DNA of 64,000 bases from Escherichia coli (GTDB lineage: Bacteria > Pseudomonadota > Gammaproteobacteria > Enterobacterales > Enterobacteriaceae): assembly GCF_022846255.1 (NCBI RefSeq), contig NZ_AP025682.1; one strand, written 5' to 3'. The stretch's first letter is position 1. Each line of letters begins with the position of its first letter. The translations under genes and the position numbers were made by a program. Below are positions 11,746-29,418 of this stretch, one piece after another. The notes beneath the pieces are model-generated. The model did not search any database. It saw only the letters and a list, made by a program, of their open reading frames with translations, and was not told the DNA's origin.

Positions 11746-12957
11746 TCAGGCATCGGCGCACGGCTGCATTCGTGATCTCCGGCTCATCAAAATAAATACT
11801 GCCAGGCCAGCAACAAGAATACCCGGCGCAGAAGCGGCCATTACGCCAACCGTGCCAATGCCTAATGCCAGCATTTTCCCGGCCAGTAACGGACCGCTCA
11901 TAGCCCCCAGACGCCCTACCGCCACGGCTGTTCCCACACCTGTTGCGCGGATCTGCGAACTGTAAAACAACGGTGCCAGGGCATACAAAACGCTTTGCCC
12001 ACCTGTCGCAAACAACCCCGCGACGAATCCCGCCAGCAACATACCGTTAAATGACGACACCGTTCCCAGCGCCAGCAGCGAAGCTAACATGCCGCTATAA
12101 ATCAGTAACGACATGGTTACTGGACGCAGCTTATCCATCAATGCGCCCAACATTAACGTCCCGCTTGCCGCCCCCATTTGCAGTGCAAACATCACCCCTG
12201 CCGCCTGCGATGGCTGGAATCCTTGCTCCACCAAAAGCAGCGGTAGCCAGTTGATCAACATGTAGACCACCAGCAGAGTGAAGAAATAACACAACCACAG
12301 CAGCAGCGTCGCGGTTGCCGTTTCTGGCGCAAATAACGCACGCAGTGGTGGCGCAGCCTGTTTTTCGCCAGCGAACACCGCCGACTCCGGCAGCCAGCGC
12401 ATTAATAGCGGCACCAGAATCAACGGCACCACACCACCTACCCAAAACACCGTTTGCCATGCTAAGTTTGCCCCCGCGAAACCCAGTGTCGCCGCCAGCG
12501 CCGCGCCAATGGGGACACCGCAATACATCAGGCTCACTGCCGTCCCACGAAAACGTGGACCCGCGGCTTCAGACGTCAGGGCGATCAGATTCGGCAACGC
12601 CGCCCCCAGCCCGACACCGGTCATCAGCCGCGCAAAGACCAGTGAGGGGAAATCCCAGGCAATCGCCGTTGCCAGTGAGAACAAACCAAACAGCGCAACT
12701 GAGCCAATCAAAATGCGCTTGCGACCATAACGGTCCGCCAGCATTCCGCCAACCAACGCGCCGGGTAGCAAACCGAGTATTCCGGCGCTGAATATCCAGC
12801 CCATTTGCATTTTATCGAGTGCGAAAGCCTGGGCGATGCCACCCGCCGCAATGCCAGCCGCCTGAAGATCCAGTCCTTCCATCAGAGCGACCAAAAAACA
12901 AAGCCCGATGGTCAGCATCAGGCGGGTTGAAGATGATGAAGGGGTACGAGTCGACAT
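11746..12957 (-). CDS. mhpT: 3-(3-hydroxyphenyl)propionate transporter (MFS)
   Basis: 403 aa from ATG 12957 (MSTRTPSSSSTRLMLTIG...); multiple transmembrane segments. Confidence 0.9.
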   Translation of the reverse strand: MSTRTPSSSSTRLMLTIGLCFLVALMEGLDLQAAGIAAGGIAQAFALDKMQMGWIFSAGILGLLPGALVGGMLADRYGRKRILIGSVALFGLFSLATAIAWDFPSLVFARLMTGVGLGAALPNLIALTSEAAGPRFRGTAVSLMYCGVPIGAALAATLGFAGANLAWQTVFWVGGVVPLILVPLLMRWLPESAVFAGEKQAAPPLRALFAPETATATLLLWLCYFFTLLVVYMLINWLPLLLVEQGFQPSQAAGVMFALQMGAASGTLMLGALMDKLRPVTMSLLIYSGMLASLLALGTVSSFNGMLLAGFVAGLFATGGQSVLYALAPLFYSSQIRATGVGTAVAVGRLGAMSGPLLAGKMLALGIGTVGVMAASAPGILVAGLAVFILMSRRSRMQPCADA

Positions 12958-13052
12958 AAGATGAACCTCGTTGCGAGTGCAGGTGAATCGCGGCTGATAC
13001 ATTGTCAGCCGCGTAATCAGAACCATTTAATGACTGCCTACGGGCGAAATAT

Positions 13053-13085
<33 letters not shown>

Positions 13086-13132
13086 GTCGTGCTGGGATGG
13101 GCATACAAAATGCACGTTCTCGGCAGTCATCA

Positions 13133-14142
13133 TTATTTGTTGTTGCGCAGATCCAGCGCCACGTCGACGATCATATCCTCCTGGCCGCCAACCATCCGGC
13201 GTTTGCCCAGCTCAACGAGAATATCCACCGCGCTTAAGCCATAACGCGCCGCCGCCGTTTCACAGTGACGCAGGAAGCTCGAGTAAACACCAGCGTATCC
13301 CAGCGCCAGCGTTTCGCGATCGACTCGTACCGGTCGATCCTGCAACGGACGCACCAGGTCGTCAGCGGCATCCATTAACGCATAGAGATCGGTCCCATGC
13401 TGCCAACCCAGTTTATCCGCGGCGGCAATAAAAACTTCCAGCGGCGCGTTACCTGCGCCCGCGCCCATTCCCGCGAGGCTGGCGTCGATTCGGTCGCAGC
13501 CCTCTTCCACCGCCGCGATAGAGTTCGCCACGCCAAGACTCAGGTTATGGTGAGCGTGTATGCCGGTTTGCGTTTCTGGTTTCAGCACTGCTTTCAGAGC
13601 GCGGAAACGGTCACGGATATCGCTCATGTTCATCGCACCGCCAGAATCCACCACATAAATACAGGTCGCACCGTAGCCTTCCATCAGCTTTGCCTGCTTT
13701 GCGAGATTCTCCGGCGTGGTCATATGGCTCATCATCAGAAAACCAACGGTGTCCATTCCGAGCTCGCGAGCATACTGAATATGCTGGGCGGAAACATCAG
13801 CTTCGGTACAGTGCGTAGCCACACGAACCACCCGCGCGCCAGCCTGCCAGGCATTTTTCAGATCGTGAATAGTGCCGATTCCAGGCAGCAACAACGTCGC
13901 GATTTTGGCGTGCTTCACCACATCCGCCGCCGCTTCAATCCATTCAAGGTCGCTATGTGCGCCGAAACCATAGTTAAAGCTGGAACCTTGCAAACCGTCG
14001 CCGTGGGCCACTTCAATCGAATCCACGCGGGCATCGTCCAGTGCTTTGGCAACCTGGAGAACGTTTTCCAATGAATACTGATGACGAATGGCGTGCATAC
14101 CGTCACGCAACGTGACGTCCGAGATATAAAGTTTTTTACCGT

Positions 14143-14146
<4 letters not shown>
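13133..14146 (-). CDS. mhpE: 4-hydroxy-2-oxovalerate aldolase
   Basis: 337 aa; overlaps mhpF by 4 nt. Confidence 0.95.
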
Positions 14147-15908
<1,762 letters not shown>

Positions 15909-16775
15909 TTAAGGGCGTGCGAGGAAATTCAGCACCAGTTGATTGAAAGCGTCGGCATGTTCCCACTGCGCCCAGTGACCACAGTCGCGGAAGATATGCA
16001 GTTCAGAACCGGCAATGCCGGACAGCAGACGCAGACCCGCATCCATCGGCACAAAGCGGTCGTTGCGCCCCCAGACAATCAGGGTTTGCGCTTTGATTTC
16101 CGCCAGACGTGGGCCAAAATCCGGGAACTGTTTCGGATTGGCTTCCAGGCTCTTAACGAAGTTTTCCAGGTGATCGCGGCGCGACAGCATATTATTCAGG
16201 CGCGCTTCAAACAGGGCGTCGGTCAAATCGCTGGTATCAAAAACGAAGATATCCATCATCAGCTTCAGGTTTTCGATAGTCGGCTGACGATAAAGCTGAT
16301 TCAGTCGCTTAATACCTTCGGTTGGCATCGGCGTAAACAAACTCATGCCGCCCGTACCGCCGCCCATCAGCACCAGTTTGCCGACGCGCTCCGGCCAGTT
16401 AAGGGTGAACGCCACAGAACTGTGGCCGCCCATCGAGTTGCCCAGCAGGTGGATTTTGGCGATATCCAGTTGATCCACCACGCTTTTCAGGATTCGCGCA
16501 TTAAGATCCGATCGTGAACCACTATTAACGATCGAATCGCTCTTACCCCAACCCGGACAATCCAGCAGGATCACCCGATAGCCCGCCTTTACCAGCGGAT
16601 CGATATTGCGGCTGAAGTTCGCCCAGCCAGTAGCACCCGGGCCGGAACCATGCAGCAGGACAACAGTTTCGTCGCCTTGTCCGCAGTCATTAAAATGGAT
16701 GCGCAGCGTTTTACCCGCTTCTTCTACATTCAGAAAACGGCTGGTGGCGGCTTCGGTTTGTGGCTGATAACTCAT
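15909..16775 (-). CDS. mhpC: 2-hydroxy-6-ketonona-2,4-dienedioate hydrolase (alpha/beta hydrolase)
   Basis: 288 aa from ATG 16775 ([14 protein letters not shown]...); GNSMGG nucleophile elbow. ORF-track start at 16838 is an extension. Confidence 0.93.
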
Positions 16776-16792: not shown

Positions 16793-17737
16793 TCAGTTCT
16801 CTGTTCTGGCGCTTAACGAGCCAAATCCGGCAATCCACTCCGGGATTGGGCGGTAATAACGCCCTTCGCTACGCCAGTTGCCAAACGCAGAAATAGCGGC
16901 AAAAGCGGCGACCCAGGTTTTGATTTCATGTGTCGACTTTCCGGCAATGGCGGAAAGCTCTTCGTTACTGACGGCATCCAGTTCCTGTATGCGTCCCTGC
17001 TCCAGCAAAGTCATGAACTGGTTATCCCAAATCGGGTTGAGCGGATGCAGCGTTCTCTGATCCTCAACAAACTTCTCAGCGGCGCTAATCACCCGTTGCT
17101 GACGCAATTCGCGCTCACTGGCGGGTAAATCTTTCCCGCTCCCCAACAGACGGTCGCGCATATGGGCATCGGCTTTCGCCAGTTCTGGCACCGGCGGCTG
17201 ATGGGAAAGCCCACCGGAACCCAGGAACAGCACGCGTTTATTGAGAGTACTGGTGAAACGTCCAATGGCTTCCCCCAACATGCGGGTACGCTGGAAACCG
17301 GGCAACGGCGTGGCGACACCGTTGATGAACACAGGCAGAACCGGCACCTTATCCAGCCCACCGAGCAGGAACTCCAGCGGCTGGGCGAACCCGTGGTCCA
17401 CCTGCATACAGTAAGAAACGGCAAGATCGATTCCGCTCTTCATGACGGCATGCGCACAGGCCTCCGCCAGCTCAACAGGCACGGGCAGCTCTCCTGCCGC
17501 ACTACCGAAATCACCAATTGCCGTCGCTCCAACGCCTAAACAGAACGGTGGCATCACGTCATAGAAAAAGCCGTTGTAGTGATCTGGCGCAAACAGCACC
17601 ACCAACTCAGGGGAGAAAGCCGCAATACGCTCGCGGGCGCTGGCAATCACGCCATTGACCTCATCGAGCACCTCTTGCGCCGGGTCGACATATCCCACCA
17701 GCGGCGAGTGGGAAAGACAGTGAAGATAAGCGTGCAT
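16793..17737 (-). CDS. mhpB: 3-(2,3-dihydroxyphenyl)propionate extradiol dioxygenase
   Basis: 314 aa. Confidence 0.95.
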
Positions 17738-17738
17738 A

Positions 17739-19403
17739 TCAGGCTACCTTTTCGACAGAAACGTCGGCATCAGGGCGGGTCAGCGTCATTACCGACGCCA
17801 GTTTATTCAGCATATTACCCAGAGTTTGCGGAATGGCGGTGGCGGCAACAAAGCGATCCGGGCGCATCACCACCAGCGAAGCATTGTGTTGCGCGAACCA
17901 GCTACGCAGGCGACCTTGCGTATCGCCCACGCGTAGTACGCCGTCGTGGTTATCCTGTGCGGTATGAATTTGCACTTCCGGCACCACCTGAATGAAGCGT
18001 GTGCCCAACGCGCGCCACTGCTGGATTTGCTCGTCGCTCATCCCCCACAGTGGATTGCATCCCCAGCCAATTACCGCGAAGTTCGCGCCGATCGCGTTAT
18101 CGAGCAGCGTCACGTCGCCGTTTTCCAGCGTGACTTTCGGCTGAATAAACATCTTGCCGACCGGAGAGTGCTTCGCTTCGCCCTCACGCACCAGCGCACC
18201 GCCGTAATATTGCGGCATCGGCTTGAAGCGCATTTCGAGGAAGTAGCGTTTTACTGGCGGCAGATAATTCAACAGCCAGGAAACGCCGTCACGTAACGTA
18301 CCCTGCCAGCGTTTCGGCGGAGCCAGCACGTTGCCCGCCGTCACGGACAGGTCAATCATCGCTTTGGCGTGATCGCGACGTTCTTGTTGATAGGTATCGA
18401 GCAGCGCATCGCGGGCTTTCCCCTGGATAACCAACGCCAGTTTCCATGCGAGGTTAAAGGCGTCGCGCATACCACTGTTATAGCCCTGCCCCTGCCACAC
18501 CGGCATGATGTGCGCGGCATCGCCCGCCAGCAGTACGCGATCAATACGAAAACGTTGCGCCAGTCGCGCGTTGTGGGTGTAGACACGCTGGCGAATCAAT
18601 TCAACATTGTCCGGATTAGGCAGCACTTTGCTTAACAGCTTGCGCATATTTTGCGGCTCACGCAGCTGTTCTTCGGTTTCTCCCGGCATCACCATAAATT
18701 CAAAGCGACGTACCGCATGAGGCAGCGCGGCAGAAACATACGGGCGCACCGGATCACAACACAAATAGATATGCGGCGTACTTAACGGATCGTTGGCGAT
18801 ATCTACCACAATCCACTGATTTGGCGCGGTTTTACCTTCAAACGGTACATTCAGGGTGCGACGAACAAAACTTGCCCCACCATCACAGGCCACCAGCCAC
18901 TGAGCTTTGACCGTTTCCCGCTGCCCTTCTGCCGTTTTCAGGTGCAAGGTCACTTCGTCATCTTGCTGGCTGAAGGCCTCCAGCTCGCGGGAAAACAAGC
19001 AGCGCACATTCGGAAAACGCGACAATCCTTCCAGCATCACCGCATCGACCTGCGGCTGAATAAAGGCGTTACGGCGCGGCCAGCCAAATTCATCGGTCAT
19101 TGGCTGAATATCAGCAAAACAGCGGCCTTTTGGAGTAAGAAAACGCATCGCATGCCACGGCGTAGTGTGCGGCAGAACATTATCAACCAGGCCAACCGAC
19201 TGCATGGTGCGCAGCGCCTCGTCATCAATACCAATCGCACGCGGGTAGTCGATCAACTTATCGAGTTTCTCCACCACCAGCACGTCAATGCCCATCTGGC
19301 CGAGATAGTTCGCCATCATCAGCCCAACCGGACCGGCACCAGCGATCGCCACCTGAACGCTATGGTTAACAGCAGGCTGGATGTCAGGGTGTTGTATTGC
19401 CAT
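17739..19403 (-). CDS. mhpA: 3-(3-hydroxyphenyl)propionate hydroxylase (FAD monooxygenase)
   Basis: 554 aa; FAD-binding [13 protein letters not shown] near N-terminus. Confidence 0.95.
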
Positions 19404-19544
19404 TTCAGTACCTCACGACTCGGACAAAATGCCGTTGCGCGCACAGTACGGCGCAACTTATTTTGTTAAAAACATGTAAATGATTTTTTATTGTGCGCTC
19501 AGTATAGGAAGGGTGTTTTCGGCTACAATCAAAACATGCCCGAA

Positions 19545-19561
19545 TGTGCACCATGTGCACA
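19545..19561. promoter_or_regulatory. 17-bp imperfect palindrome TGTGCACCATGTGCACA in the mhpR/mhpA divergent region (candidate MhpR operator)
   Basis: Inverted GTGCAC half-sites read directly; matches my memory of the MhpR site as a 17-bp GTGCAC-containing palindrome. Confidence 0.5.
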
Positions 19562-19593
19562 ACGTTGTTTTAACTATAGAAATGTCAATTAAT

Positions 19594-20427
19594 ATGCAGA
19601 ACAATGAGCAGACGGAATACAAAACCGTACGCGGCTTAACCCGCGGTCTAATGTTATTAAATATGTTAAATAAACTTGACGGCGGTGCCAGCGTCGGGCT
19701 GCTGGCGGAACTCAGCGGCCTGCATCGCACCACTGTGCGGCGACTGCTGGAGACGCTGCAGGAAGAGGGATATGTCCGGCGTAGTCCCTCCGATGATAGT
19801 TTCCGTTTGACCATCAAAGTGCGGCAATTAAGCGAAGGATTTCGTGACGAACAGTGGATTTCTGCACTGGCGGCCCCATTGCTGGGCGATCTGTTGCGCG
19901 AAGTGGTTTGGCCAACAGATGTGTCCACCCTGGATGTTGATGCAATGGTGGTACGCGAAACCACCCACCGTTTCAGCCGCTTATCCTTTCACCGGGCAAT
20001 GGTCGGGCGACGGTTACCGCTTCTGAAAACCGCCTCGGGCCTGACCTGGCTGGCCTTTTGCCCCGAACAAGAACGCAAGGAATTAATCGAGATGTTAGCC
20101 TCCCGCCCCGGTGATGACTATCAACTGGCACGGGAACCGTTAAAACTGGAAGCCATTCTGGCGCGGGCGCGCAAAGAGGGGTACGGACAGAACTACCGCG
20201 GCTGGGATCAAGAAGAAAAGATCGCCTCTATTGCCGTACCGCTGCGCAGTGAACAACGGGTGATTGGCTGTCTGAATCTGGTGTATATGGCGAGCGCAAT
20301 GACCATTGAACAGGCAGCGGAAAAACATCTTCCGGCGCTACAACGGGTGGCAAAACAGATCGAAGAAGGGGTTGAATCGCAGGCTATTCTGGTGGCCGGA
20401 CGGCGAAGCGGCGTGCATTTACGTTGA
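19594..20427 (+). CDS. mhpR: IclR-family activator of the mhp operon
   Basis: 277 aa from ATG 19594 (MQNNEQTEYKTVRGLTRGLMLLNML...); an alternative ATG at 19582 cannot be excluded. Confidence 0.9.
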   Translation: MQNNEQTEYKTVRGLTRGLMLLNMLNKLDGGASVGLLAELSGLHRTTVRRLLETLQEEGYVRRSPSDDSFRLTIKVRQLSEGFRDEQWISALAAPLLGDLLREVVWPTDVSTLDVDAMVVRETTHRFSRLSFHRAMVGRRLPLLKTASGLTWLAFCPEQERKELIEMLASRPGDDYQLAREPLKLEAILARARKEGYGQNYRGWDQEEKIASIAVPLRSEQRVIGCLNLVYMASAMTIEQAAEKHLPALQRVAKQIEEGVESQAILVAGRRSGVHLR

Positions 20428-20503
20428 CACCATCGAATGGCGCAAAACCTTTCGTGGTATGGCATGATAGCGCCCGGAAGAGAGTCAATTCAGGGTGGTG
20501 AAT

Positions 20504-21586
20504 GTGAAACCAGTAACGCTATACGATGTCGCAGAGTATGCCGGTGTCTCTTATCAGACCGTTTCCCGCGTGGTGAACCAGGCCAGCCACGTTTCTGCGA
20601 AAACGCGGGAAAAAGTAGAAGCGGCGATGGCGGAGCTGAATTACATTCCCAACCGCGTGGCACAACAACTGGCGGGCAAGCAGTCGTTGCTGATTGGCGT
20701 TGCCACCTCCAGTCTGGCCCTGCACGCGCCGTCGCAAATTGTCGCGGCGATTAAATCTCGCGCCGATCAACTGGGTGCCAGCGTGGTGGTGTCGATGGTA
20801 GAACGAAGCGGCGTCGAAGCCTGTAAAGCGGCGGTGCACAATCTTCTCGCGCAACGCGTCAGTGGGCTGATCATTAACTATCCGCTGGATGACCAGGATG
20901 CCATTGCTGTGGAAGCTGCCTGCACTAATGTTCCGGCTTTATTTCTTGATGTCTCTGACCAGACACCCATCAACAGTATTATTTTCTCCCATGAAGACGG
21001 TACGCGACTGGGCGTGGAGCATCTGGTCGCATTGGGTCACCAGCAAATCGCGCTGTTAGCAGGTCCATTAAGTTCTGTCTCGGCGCGTCTGCGTCTGGCG
21101 GGCTGGCATAAATATCTCACACGCAATCAAATTCAGCCGATAGCGGAACGGGAAGGCGACTGGAGTGCTATGTCCGGTTTTCAACAAACCATGCAAATGC
21201 TGAATGAGGGCATCGTCCCCACTGCGATGCTGGTTGCCAACGATCAGATGGCGCTGGGCGCAATGCGCGCCATTACCGAGTCCGGGCTGCGCGTTGGTGC
21301 GGATATCTCGGTAGTGGGATACGACGATACCGAAGACAGCTCGTGTTATATCCCGCCGTTAACCACCATCAAACAGGATTTTCGCCTGCTGGGGCAAACC
21401 AGCGTGGACCGCTTGCTGCAACTCTCTCAGGGCCAGGCGGTGAAGGGCAATCAGCTGTTGCCCGTCTCACTGGTGAAAAGAAAAACCACCCTTCCGCCCA
21501 ATACGCAAACCGCTTCTCCCCAGGCGTTGGCAGATTCTTTAATGCAGCTGGCGCGACAAATTTCCCGACTCGAAAGCGGGCAGTGA
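20504..21586 (+). CDS. lacI: lactose operon repressor
   Basis: GTG start at 20504 gives MKPVTLYDVAEYAGVSYQTVSRVVNQ..., 360 aa; the ORF track starts 9 nt upstream in the same frame. Confidence 0.97.
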   Translation: MKPVTLYDVAEYAGVSYQTVSRVVNQASHVSAKTREKVEAAMAELNYIPNRVAQQLAGKQSLLIGVATSSLALHAPSQIVAAIKSRADQLGASVVVSMVERSGVEACKAAVHNLLAQRVSGLIINYPLDDQDAIAVEAACTNVPALFLDVSDQTPINSIIFSHEDGTRLGVEHLVALGHQQIALLAGPLSSVSARLRLAGWHKYLTRNQIQPIAEREGDWSAMSGFQQTMQMLNEGIVPTAMLVANDQMALGAMRAITESGLRVGADISVVGYDDTEDSSCYIPPLTTIKQDFRLLGQTSVDRLLQLSQGQAVKGNQLLPVSLVKRKTTLPPNTQTASPQALADSLMQLARQISRLESGQ

Positions 21587-21598
21587 GCGCAACGCAAT

Positions 21599-21599
<1 letters not shown>
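21579..21599. promoter_or_regulatory. lac operator O3
   Basis: GGCAGTGAGCGCAACGCAATT overlapping the lacI 3' end. Confidence 0.85.
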
Positions 21600-24783
<3,184 letters not shown>

Positions 24784-26097: not shown

Positions 26098-26128
26098 GTC
26101 GGATGCGGCGCGAGCGCCTTATCCGACC
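26098..26128. repeat. REP element between lacY and lacA
   Basis: GTCGGATGCGGCGCGAGCGCCTTATCCGACC. Confidence 0.75.
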
Positions 26129-26153
26129 AACATATCAGGGCGGAATGATCGCA

Positions 26154-26765
26154 ATGAACATGTCGATGACAGAAAGAATAAAAGCAGGCAAGCTATTTAC
26201 CGATATGTGCGAAGGCTTACCTGAAAAAAGACTTCGTGGAAAAACGTTAATGTATGAGTTTAATCACTCGCATCCATCAGAAGTTGATAAAAGAGAAAGC
26301 CTGATTAAAGAAATGTTTGCCACGGTAGGGGAAAACGCCTGGGTAGAACCCCCCGTCTATTTCTCTTACGGTTCCAACATCCATATAGGCCGCAATTTTT
26401 ATGCAAATTTCAATTTAACCATTGTCGACGACTACACGGTAACGATCGGTGATAACGTACTGATTGCACCCAACGTTACTCTTTCCGTTACGGGACACCC
26501 GATACACCATGAATTGAGAAAAAACGGAGAGATGTACTCTTTTCCGATAACGATTGGCAATAACGTCTGGATCGGAAGTCATGTGGTTATTAATCCAGGC
26601 GTCACCATCGGGGATAATTCTGTTATTGGCGCGGGTAGTATCGTCACAAAAGACATTCCACCAAACGTCGTGGCTACTGGCGTTCCTTGTCGGGTTATTC
26701 GCGAAATAAACGACCGGGATAAGCAATATTATTTCAAAGATTTTAAAGTTGAGTCTTCAGTTTAA
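26154..26765 (+). CDS. lacA: galactoside O-acetyltransferase
   Basis: 203 aa from ATG 26154 (MNMSMTERIKAGKLFTDM...); hexapeptide-repeat acyltransferase. The ORF-track N-terminal extension is a translation of the REP. Confidence 0.95.
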   Translation: MNMSMTERIKAGKLFTDMCEGLPEKRLRGKTLMYEFNHSHPSEVDKRESLIKEMFATVGENAWVEPPVYFSYGSNIHIGRNFYANFNLTIVDDYTVTIGDNVLIAPNVTLSVTGHPIHHELRKNGEMYSFPITIGNNVWIGSHVVINPGVTIGDNSVIGAGSIVTKDIPPNVVATGVPCRVIREINDRDKQYYFKDFKVESSV

Positions 26766-26778
26766 ATAAGCAAAATTA

Positions 26779-26849
26779 CCTGATGCGCTCCGCTTATCAG
26801 GCCTACAATTTCAGTGATCTACGTAGGCCGGATAAGGTGTTCACGCCGC
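26779..26849. repeat. REP pair between lacA and codA
   Basis: CCTGATGCGCTCCGCTTATCAGGCCTAC ... GTAGGCCGGATAAGGTGTTCACGCCGCATCCGGC. Confidence 0.75.
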
Positions 26850-26885
26850 ATCCGGCATAAACTACGCTCGCGGTAGCCCAGCCGA

Positions 26886-28169
26886 TTACCGTTTGTAATC
26901 GATGGCTTCTGGCTGCTCCAGATATACGGTGGTTTGTGCCGGTTGTGTGCTGGCAATCACCTTACCGCCACGTACCGAATAACGTACCGGAACCTGACGG
27001 CGCAACGCATCAAACCCATTTTCAGCCGGCAGGATAATCAGGTTGGCGCTGTTTCCGGCGGCAATGCCGTAATCCTGCAAATTCAACGTCCTGGCGCTAT
27101 GGTGGGTGATTAAATTCAGGCCGTCGTTAATCTGCCCGTAGCCCATCAGTTGGCAAACATGCAGCCCCATATGCAGCACTTGCAGCATATTCGCCGTTCC
27201 CAGCGGATACCACGGATCGAAGACATCATCGTGACCAAAGCAGACGTTAATGCCGGACTCCAGCATCTCTTTAACGCGCGTGATACCGCGACGTTTTGGA
27301 TACGTATCGAAACGTCCTTGCAGATGAATATTGACCAACGGGTTGGCGACAAAGTTAATACCGGACATTTTCAGCAAACGAAACAGGCGCGAAGTATACG
27401 CCCCGTTATAGGAGTGCATTGCCGTAGTATGGCTGGCGGTGACTCGCGCGCCCATGCCTTCACGGTGCGCCAGGGCAGCAACGGTTTCGACAAAGCGTGA
27501 TTGCTCATCATCAATCTCGTCACAGTGAACATCGATGAGACGGTCGTATTTTTGCGCCAGGGCGAAGGTTTTATGCAGCGACTCCACGCCATATTCACGG
27601 GTAAATTCAAAATGCGGAATCGCCCCAACAACGTCTGCCCCTAAGCGTAACGCCTCTTCCAGCAACGCTTCACCATTGGGATACGACAAAATCCCTTCCT
27701 GCGGGAAGGCGACGATTTGTAGATCAATCCACGGCGCAACTTCCTGTTTCACTTCCAGCATTGCTTTCAGCGCAGTCAGCGTTGCGTCCGAAACATCGAC
27801 ATGGGTACGCACATGCTGAATGCCGTTGGCAATCTGCCATTTCAGCGTTTGCCATGCGCGTTGTTTCACATCGTCATGAGTTAATAACGCTTTGCGCTCG
27901 GCCCAGCGTTCAATGCCTTCAAACAGCGTGCCGGACTGATTCCAGTTCGGTTGTCCGGCGGTTTGCGTGGTGTCCAGGTGAATATGCGGCTCCACAAACG
28001 GCGGTAAAACTAAACCTTGTTCGGCATCCAGGCTGTTTTCAGTTACGGGCATCACACCAGATTGCGTATCAATGGCGCTGATTTTTCCGTCGTGAAGATG
28101 AATCTGCCACAGCCCCTCTTTGCCGGGTAACCGGGCGTTAATAATTGTTTGTAAAGCGTTATTCGACAC
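26886..28169 (-). CDS. codA: cytosine deaminase
   Basis: 427 aa from GTG 28169 ([16 protein letters not shown]...); metal ligands HIH..H..D present. Confidence 0.95.
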
Positions 28170-29418
28170 TGTTAGCCTCCACATGCGTCATTGCTGCTGT
28201 CGTTTTACGATTCAAAATCGGGTTAAGGATCAGATAGCTCAGCGCGCCACCTAATACCGCGTTGACCGGAACAATTCCCGGTAACCAGTGGCCTGCGGCA
28301 ATCCCCAGCGCGACCGCCAGAATCGCCACCCAATTGACACTCATCATACGCGTGGTCGCAAAGTGCTCATAGCGGCGACGGTTCATCAGATAATCAGCGA
28401 TGATCACGCCGCCCACCGGAGGAATAGCTGCCGAAAGGAAGGTCAACCAGCCGACAAAATTGTTATACAGCCATAATGCGCAGACCGTACCGATAATACC
28501 GTTAATCACCGAAAGGGTTTTGCTCGACATACCGGTAATGTTGGCGAAACCTAAACCCGACGCATAGAGCGCGTTATCGTTGGTGGTCCAGATATTCAGC
28601 CCCAGCACCACAATCGCAGGCAGCAGCAGGCCCTGAGCAATCATCACATCAGAGATATCCGCCATCCCCAGTGCCGCCGCGCCCGCTGCACCGAAAATAA
28701 ACATCAACGAGTTGCCGAGGAAAAAGGCCACCATCGCCACCAGCACCGCCAGTTTGGCATTACGACCAAACCGGACAAAGTCAGCGGTGAGCGTGCCCGC
28801 ACTGATAAATGACCCCACAACCAGCGCCAGCGCGACATTGAAATCTAACGGTTGTGCGGGAACGACCGCTTTTAATGCGTCCAGGCCGCCCATGCCGTTA
28901 ACGGCCAACCACACGGAATAACCGCCAAGACAGGCGATAGCCGGAACCGCAATCACCGAAAGAACTGTCAGCGCCGAAATGCCAAAGAAGACGGTGACGG
29001 TCATCAGTAAACCGGAGACGGCAATCAGCAAATTAATATCCAGCCCGGTTGCCTTGCCCACCGGAATAGCAAACATCGCCACGCCAACGCCAAACCAGCC
29101 AACCTGGGTGCCGCCCAGCAGCAGTGAAGGCAACCATGAGCCTTTAACACCAAACGAGAAGCGAGCAAGAAGATGGGTGGTCAGGCCGGTTTTTGCGCCA
29201 ATGTAACCAAGAAATGAAGTGTAAATACCGAGGAGAAGATTACCGATGAGAACTGCGAGGAAGAAATCATGATAGCTAAGACCGGTTCCGAGAGTGCCGC
29301 CGGTCCACATACTGGCGGAAAAGAAGGTTAATCCCAGCATGACGAACGTCAATGCCAATACCCCTTTCCGCGCCGACTGCGGGACTGGCCCCTGGCTAAA
29401 GTTGTTATCTTGCGACAC
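28159..29418 (-). CDS. codB: cytosine permease
   Basis: 419 aa membrane protein [19 protein letters not shown]...; 11-nt overlap with codA start. Confidence 0.95.

Follow-up and report, generated by a model that had tools for sequence, protein, structure and literature searches.

The analysed DNA, a 64,000-nt window of the Escherichia coli contig NZ_AP025682.1, carries mhpR on the plus strand and mhpABCDFE and mhpT on the minus strand (Table 1). All eight mhp genes (R, A, B, C, D, F, E and T) were full length, and seven of them scored above the cut-off of the expected NCBIfam equivalog or subfamily. The exception was mhpC, which has no NCBIfam equivalog of its own and scored under the cut-off of a related hydrolase model. 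The mhpR–mhpABCDFE–mhpT set was thus intact, in agreement with the original prediction, and the 4-nt overlaps that it had described at mhpD/mhpF and mhpF/mhpE were present in the ORFs, as in the K-12 annotation. Relative to K-12, the lac–mhp region was reversed in the window, with lacI, lacZ, lacY and lacA coming after mhpR.

The regulator itself was almost unchanged. MhpR of the window was identical to K-12 MhpR at 275 of 277 residues, with complete identity over residues 1–159; the two differences (residues 160 and 274) both fall outside the N-terminal HTH, leaving the DNA-binding domain as in K-12. The protein contained the Pfam domains HTH_IclR and IclR_C and scored 345 bits with NCBIfam NF007341 (cut-off 269). 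The ATG at 19594, annotated as the start codon in both K-12 and E2865, was kept in 17 enteric sequences; a longer ORF of 315 aa from 19480 was rejected as a purely mechanical reading. A search of the PDB for a structure of MhpR returned distant IclR relatives only.

Several differences between strains were observed in the surrounding region. In the mhpE–mhpT gap (12958–13132 in the window), the copy number of a REP/BIME unit of ca. 101 bp varied by strain, with one copy in the window (175 nt), two in E2865 (274 nt) and five in K-12 (577 nt). The cynR–cynTSX genes, which lie between lacA and codA in K-12, were absent from the window (26766–26885). Here, lacA (26103–26765) was followed by ca. 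120 nt with a REP-like palindrome and then by codA (26886–28184, minus strand), codB and prpE, as identified by NCBIfam, with ORFs of the size of prpD, prpC, prpB and prpR beyond prpE. Unlike the window, E2865 was without lacA but had kept cynTSX.

Table 1. Positions of genes and of observed or putative regulatory features in the window
Feature	Position	Strand	Basis or remark
mhpT, 3HPP transporter, 403 aa with the K-12 start	11746–12957	−	NCBIfam NF008586, 622.7 bits
mhpE	13133–14146	−	ORF; full-length NCBIfam match
mhpF	14143–15093	−	ORF; full-length NCBIfam match
mhpD	15090–15899	−	ORF; full-length NCBIfam match
mhpC	about 15909–16775	−	ORF; full length, under cut-off of related hydrolase model
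mhpB	16793–17737	−	ORF; full-length NCBIfam match
mhpA, 3HPP hydroxylase, first gene of the regulated operon	17739–19403	−	NCBIfam NF004827, full length, 1286 bits; K-12 annotation
Second CRP-like block, TGTAAatgattTTTTA	19475–19490		Consensus scan; conserved in enterics, TGTGA in Citrobacter
Putative −10 hexamer TATACT of Pa (mhpA promoter)	19501–19506	−	Conservation; scan candidate
Putative −35-like hexamer TTGTAG of Pa (CTACAA on plus strand)	19523–19528	−	Conservation; role inferred
MhpR binding site (operator/activator site) of Pa	19545–19561		Exact match, chance test, K-12 alignment, core conservation
Operator, first GTGCAC (flank T19545)	19546–19551		CAT between the two hexamers
Window-specific T, third base of the N3 spacer	19554		K-12 alignment; E. 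coli and metagenome searches
Operator, second GTGCAC (flank A19561)	19555–19560		
Conserved block TTGTTTTA (TTGnTTTA)	19565–19572		3 nt right of the 17-bp site, 4 nt from the core
Weak CRP-like TGTCAattaatATGCA, centre 19590.5	19583–19598		Overlaps mhpR ATG; 4 of 10 mismatches to TGTGA-N6-TCACA
mhpR, IclR-family regulator, 277 aa	19594–20427	+	K-12 identity, Pfam, NCBIfam NF007341, conserved ATG

A palindromic site in the mhpA–mhpR intergenic region

The gap between mhpA and mhpR spans 190 bp (19404–19593). The original prediction had placed a GTGCAC-based palindrome at 19545–19561 within it, between the divergent starts and closer to mhpR, and both the sequence and the coordinates proved to be exact: TGTGCACCATGTGCACA occupies these positions, 32 nt from the mhpR ATG (19594, plus strand) and 141 nt from the mhpA ATG (19403, minus strand). 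The arms of the site, TGTGCAC and GTGCACA, form an inverted repeat of 7 bp without mismatches and are separated by 3 nt. The hexamer GTGCAC is a palindrome in its own right, and the same bases therefore also make up a 9-bp tandem direct repeat, ATGTGCACC / ATGTGCACA.

The pattern TGTGCACNNNGTGCACA occurred once in the window and in none of 100 dinucleotide-preserving shuffles. The hexamer GTGCAC was rarer than expected in the window (7 found vs. 20.7 expected), and two of the seven copies are those of the operator, 3 bp apart. A search for a second MhpR site across the window, including the region upstream of mhpT and allowing up to two mismatches, returned a single other match, which lies inside lacZ and is at chance level. 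A larger palindrome, CTACAATCAAAACA / TGTTTTAACTATAG, was considered as an extended symmetric site and rejected, as its centre is 2 bp off that of the operator and its outer part is unconserved.

Correspondence to the K-12 MhpR site

The alignment with the K-12 mhp promoter, which had been proposed as a check, was ungapped and matched the K-12 site column for column. In MG1655, TGTGCACCAGGTGCACC lies opposite 19545–19561; the two sequences agree at 15 of 17 positions, and the stretches from the operator to both genes are free of indels. The K-12 sequence TGTGCACCAGGTGCACC is the exact reverse complement of GGTGCACCTGGTGCACA, which is given as the E. coli MhpR motif in Table 1 of PMC8222616 (Suvorova and Gelfand 2021), with credit to Torres et al. 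2003 (Torres, Porras, Garcia and Diaz 2003, J Biol Chem 278:27575). Since the aligned K-12 sequence is the reverse complement of this tabulated motif, the palindrome at 19545–19561 is, by sequence homology, the known MhpR binding site, i.e., the homologue of the experimentally defined K-12 site. The reading as an IclR-type operator was therefore supported, and in the literature examined the published site maps to 19545–19561 rather than elsewhere. One element of that reading needs refinement, namely that MhpR at this site acts as an activator of the mhpA promoter and not as a classical repressor.

The window and K-12 share the locus, the position of the operator between mhpR and mhpA, both intact GTGCAC hexamers and the DNA-binding domain of the cognate regulator. 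They differ by two substitutions, at 19554 (T in the window, G in K-12) and 19561 (A in the window, C in K-12), which affect the symmetry of the site. The K-12 allele has 7-bp arms around one central base and the common E. coli allele is a perfect 17-mer with 8-bp arms, whereas the window allele has 7-bp arms around a 3-nt spacer. Thus, the description as a perfect 7-3-7 palindrome holds for the allele of the window but does not extend to other E. coli alleles.

The operator also resembles the sites of an IclR-family group with the motif GTNCG-N5-6-CGNAC (PcaU, PobR, PcaR, HmgR, GenR and others; PMC8222616). Shared features are an inverted repeat of 15–17 bp, 5-bp half-sites around a centre of ca. 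5 bp, a location in the divergent region beside the regulator gene, and the control of an aromatic catabolic operon (PMC8222616). In contrast to this group, the half-site of the window operator is GTGCA rather than GTNCG, and the site is at the same time a 9-bp tandem direct repeat, with three or four units in some strains. An external third half-site of the type known for PcaU/PobR was not evident at the window operator, the nearby TTGnTTTA block fitting the hexamer at three of six positions. The element as such is already known, as the site, its regulator and the mode of action were described for K-12 in 2003.

Conservation of the core across species

One genome per species with MhpR was scanned, giving 80 loci. 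These represented Escherichia, Citrobacter, Kluyvera, Shimwellia, Edaphovirga, Pluralibacter, Pseudomonas, Stutzerimonas, Azotobacter, Azomonas, Zobellella, Marinobacterium, Oceanospirillum, Nitrincola, Xanthobacter and Vibrio. The core GTGCAC-N3-GTGCAC was found upstream of mhpR without mismatch in 69 of the 80 loci and with at most one mismatch in 78, in genera including Escherichia, Citrobacter, Kluyvera, Pseudomonas, Azotobacter, Zobellella, Marinobacterium, Nitrincola and Xanthobacter. Among the 80 loci, it was missing from two Vibrio loci only, and neither of these had mhpA nearby. In most loci, mhpA was divergent from mhpR and the core started 36–60 nt upstream of mhpR.

Across the 78 sites, the 12 core positions were essentially invariant, with ca. 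1.8–2 bits each. The outer flanks had clear majority states, T at position 0 in 53 of 78 sites and A at position 16 in 57 of 78. The N3 spacer comprised 16 different triplets, the most frequent being TAA (25 sites), CAG (12), TAG (7), TTA (6) and TAT (5). In each of the nine sites with one mismatch, a single arm was altered with no compensating change in the other, and these uncompensated mismatches form the pattern of a sequence-specific protein site and not that of a hairpin. The footprint that emerges across genera is one in which the 12 core bases are constrained, the outer T and A are constrained more weakly, and the spacer is free.

In three Marinobacterium loci (L043 at 2671, L048 at 3301 and L057 at 3323), a second exact GTGCAC-N3-GTGCAC was found at or just past the 3′ end of the mhpR match, suggesting that the operon is arranged differently there and that MhpR controls a second promoter.

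Putative promoter elements around the operator

A generic consensus scan of the region detected no consensus sigma-70 promoter; the hexamers of Pa were therefore assigned by conservation only. The lack of a consensus is as expected for an activator-dependent promoter. The most conserved flanking element was ACAA (at about 19526–19529; TTGT on the mhpA strand), with 1.2–2.0 bits and invariance in the enterics, and it overlaps the −35-like hexamer of Pa. On the side of mhpA, AGTATA, the plus-strand form that covers the −10, was invariant in 17 enteric sequences, and across the 78 loci a TATA-containing block lay 0–2 nt from the E. coli offset, with a −35 to −10 spacer of 16–18 nt. The distance from ACAA to the core was fixed across clades, and the −10 shifted by up to 2 nt. 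From the position of the −10, mhpA transcription is predicted to start near 19494–19495, placing the operator centre (19553) at −58/−59. The spacing of the operator to the −10 and −35 was identical to that in K-12. The 2003 study of the K-12 promoter by Torres and co-workers reportedly located the MhpR site centred at −58 of Pa, with which the predicted position in the window agrees, and is also said to have located a CRP site centred at −95.5.

Two CRP-like blocks were found in the gap. The first, TGTCAattaatATGCA, is the candidate upstream CRP site of Pa, judged from its position near −95.5, and its TGTCA was kept in Escherichia, Citrobacter and part of Kluyvera. The second, TGTAAatgattTTTTA, could correspond to a CRP site described for the mhpR promoter and cited as lying at −38 to −59 of mhpRp2 (PMC12132413). 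The PredCRP supplement contained no mhp entries. The overall arrangement would be that of sigma-70 promoters that depend jointly on a specific activator and CRP, with, according to the literature (PMC8753852), the activator near −58, CRP further upstream, and CRP dependent on the activator. The predicted geometry of the window matches this arrangement, although the candidate CRP site is very weak, lies over the start codon of the regulator gene and is assigned by inference.

On the plus strand, TACAAT (19524–19529), which overlaps the −35 of Pa and was invariant in the enterics, could serve as the −10 of mhpR.

The block TTGTTTTA to the right of the operator was a further conserved feature. 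The form TTGnTTTA was retained at a fixed spacing from the operator in enterics, Pseudomonas, Azotobacter and Zobellella. It does not share a centre with the operator, resembles the GTGCAC hexamer at three of six positions, and leaves no space for a promoter between itself and the mhpR start. This block is not accounted for by the model of MhpR as an activator.

Proposed mode of action and alternative explanations

For K-12, the literature has established the identity of the site, the activator role of MhpR, its inducers and the dependence of CRP on MhpR. In the window, the site is homologous to that of K-12, the DNA-binding domain is identical, the core is deeply conserved and its spacing to the −35 is fixed. 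Taken together, it is very probable that 19545–19561 is a docking site for MhpR ca. 58 bp upstream of the mhpA start, from which 3HPP-bound MhpR together with cAMP-CRP activates mhpABCDFE.

In detail, the two GTGCAC hexamers would be recognised by MhpR, with GTGCA and TGCAC as half-sites around a 5-bp centre. Binding would be stimulated by 3-hydroxyphenylpropionate, with phenylpropionate acting in synergy. MhpR bound at ca. −58 would then switch on the weak sigma-70 promoter Pa (putative −10 at 19506–19501, −35-like element at 19528–19523), and the bound regulator would also be required for cAMP-CRP to occupy a weak site further upstream. As CRP binding would need bound MhpR, mhpABCDFE would be expressed only in the presence of an inducer and the absence of glucose. 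These steps are in line with reports that Pa is activated by MhpR in a 3HPP-dependent manner and that CRP requires MhpR for binding at Pa (PMC8753852), and that 3HPP, PP and DHPP bind MhpR singly or synergistically and promote its binding to the operator of the mhpABCDFE promoter region (PMC11237407).

The operator also falls within the promoter region of mhpR or immediately downstream of it. MhpR bound there, 32 nt ahead of the mhpR ATG and probably past the mhpR promoter, could mainly repress mhpR. The much shorter distance to mhpR than to mhpA, which was observed across genera as well, is consistent with this autoregulatory role, and IclR-family regulators generally control their own expression (PMC8222616). 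However, constitutive activity of the mhpR promoter, with or without inducers, has been reported in agreement with Torres 2003 (PMC11237407), and the literature describes MhpR as the activator of Pa (PMC11237407, PMC8753852). Furthermore, the spacing that is fixed is the one to the mhpA-side −35, and the −10 varies by no more than 2 nt, consistent with Pa being the promoter that is activated. We therefore regard autorepression as the main function of the site as improbable, although modest autoregulation of mhpR would be compatible with MhpR activating Pa from this site. Expression of mhpR is also under CRP control (PMC12132413). Repression of mhpR by ArcA has been described in addition.

A second explanation places the function of the palindrome at the RNA level. 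Together with ACGTTGTTTT, it could form an intrinsic terminator or attenuator hairpin on the plus strand, limiting mhpR from within its leader, either instead of protein binding or alongside it. This would need the mhpR transcript to start upstream, near 19536; with the TACAAT at 19524–19529 as a plausible −10, the palindrome would fall within the mhpR 5′ UTR. A consensus scan also flagged 19545–19561 and its T-rich tail as terminator-like, and the T-rich TTGnTTTA directly follows the palindrome in many genera. The predicted hairpin was nevertheless weak and not unusual at −9.1 kcal/mol (z = −1.37), as 22 of 200 shuffles were equally stable, and that of the K-12 allele was weaker still (−7.4 kcal/mol, z = 0.05). 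The U-run begins 4 nt past the stem and is interrupted, and the stem bases are invariant rather than covarying, with the single-arm mismatches left uncompensated. In terms of energy, geometry and covariation, the element does not resemble a Rho-independent terminator, which combines a stable GC-rich hairpin with an immediate U-run, and the site is documented as a protein binding site (PMC8222616). A terminator or attenuator is thus very unlikely.

Finally, the palindrome could be a CRP site, given that its left arm TGTGC fits four of five positions of the CRP half-site TGTGA in a region known to be CRP-regulated, or a chance palindrome of two ApaLI sites. Both readings can practically be discounted. 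At CRP spacing, the 16-mer deviates from TGTGA-N6-TCACA at 5 of 10 positions and fell outside a scan limited to four mismatches; the pattern appeared in 0 of 100 shuffles, and the core is conserved in 78 of 80 loci.

Variation of the operator among E. coli strains

At 19561, where the window differs from K-12, A is the majority state both in E. coli and across species. In contrast, the T at 19554 was private to the window. This position was G in K-12, E2865 and all other E. coli sequences that were read base by base. The 60-mer of the window was not found at 100% identity in any of 4,896 E. coli genomes holding the region, 28-mers with the T19554 allele were absent from 5,426 complete E. coli genomes, and none of 37 JGI metagenome contigs carried it. 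Of 4,900 E. coli records, 2,084 matched the commonest allele exactly over a 60-mer that contains TGTGCACCAGGTGCACA, a perfect 17-bp palindrome, and 1,329 matched the K-12 form exactly. The 37 metagenome contigs comprised 25 with the common form, 11 with the K-12 form and one with a CAA spacer.

In the 78 orthologous sites, the position equivalent to 19554 was A in 48, G in 25 and T in five, all five with T having a TAT spacer; a CAT spacer was found in none of the 78. T19554 disrupts the innermost C–G pair of the symmetry, a pair that is also lacking in 26 of the 78 natural sites as counted from the spacer triplets. Because the N3 spacer is variable and other species also carry T there, T19554 is probably near-neutral with a small effect on MhpR binding, and the CAT allele would be expected to bind MhpR as normally as CAG. 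The substitution makes the two 9-bp units more alike, giving ATGTGCAC twice; speculatively, it could have originated by misalignment between the 9-bp repeats.

Over 17000–22000 of the window, the best identity to complete RefSeq E. coli genomes was 99.5% over 5 kb; only four records reached 99%, and most were at ca. 98.9%. The closest species-representative MhpR was that of Escherichia sp. E1V33 (99%). The window thus probably derives from an under-sampled Escherichia lineage. With no complete genome closer to this lineage than 99.5% over 5 kb, a single private base within 190 bp is nothing unusual.

Variation in the number of repeat units was also observed. One strain carried three GTGCAC hexamers through a 9-bp insertion of GTGCACCAG, and another carried four through an 18-bp insertion. 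These expansions were found in E. coli WP3-W18-ESBL-08 (L003, 391–509) and E. coli Z1323HEC0011 (L121, 170–210), at the equivalent of window 19546–19560. Identity bands suggested ca. 15 records with +9 bp and one with +18 bp among the 4,900. Such expansions would lengthen the distance between Pa and the upstream CRP-like site by 9 or 18 bp.

Implications

The call of an operator from the DNA letters alone was correct, and the value of the site as a discovery is small, since the window carries an orthologous element together with an intact mhp cluster. T19554, a private base in a free spacer, is the sole new point about the operator itself. A broader proposal is that the operator is a hot spot of natural regulatory variation, in which T19554 and the expanded GTGCACCAG alleles would lead to strain-specific inducibility of 3-hydroxyphenylpropionate catabolism in the gut. 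We consider this speculative and on balance unlikely. If it were true, the alleles could change the affinity of MhpR or the helical phasing between MhpR and CRP. Should variants in the spacer or in copy number alter induction, they would provide a modest case of cis-regulatory polymorphism in a pathway of aromatic catabolism that is relevant to the gut.
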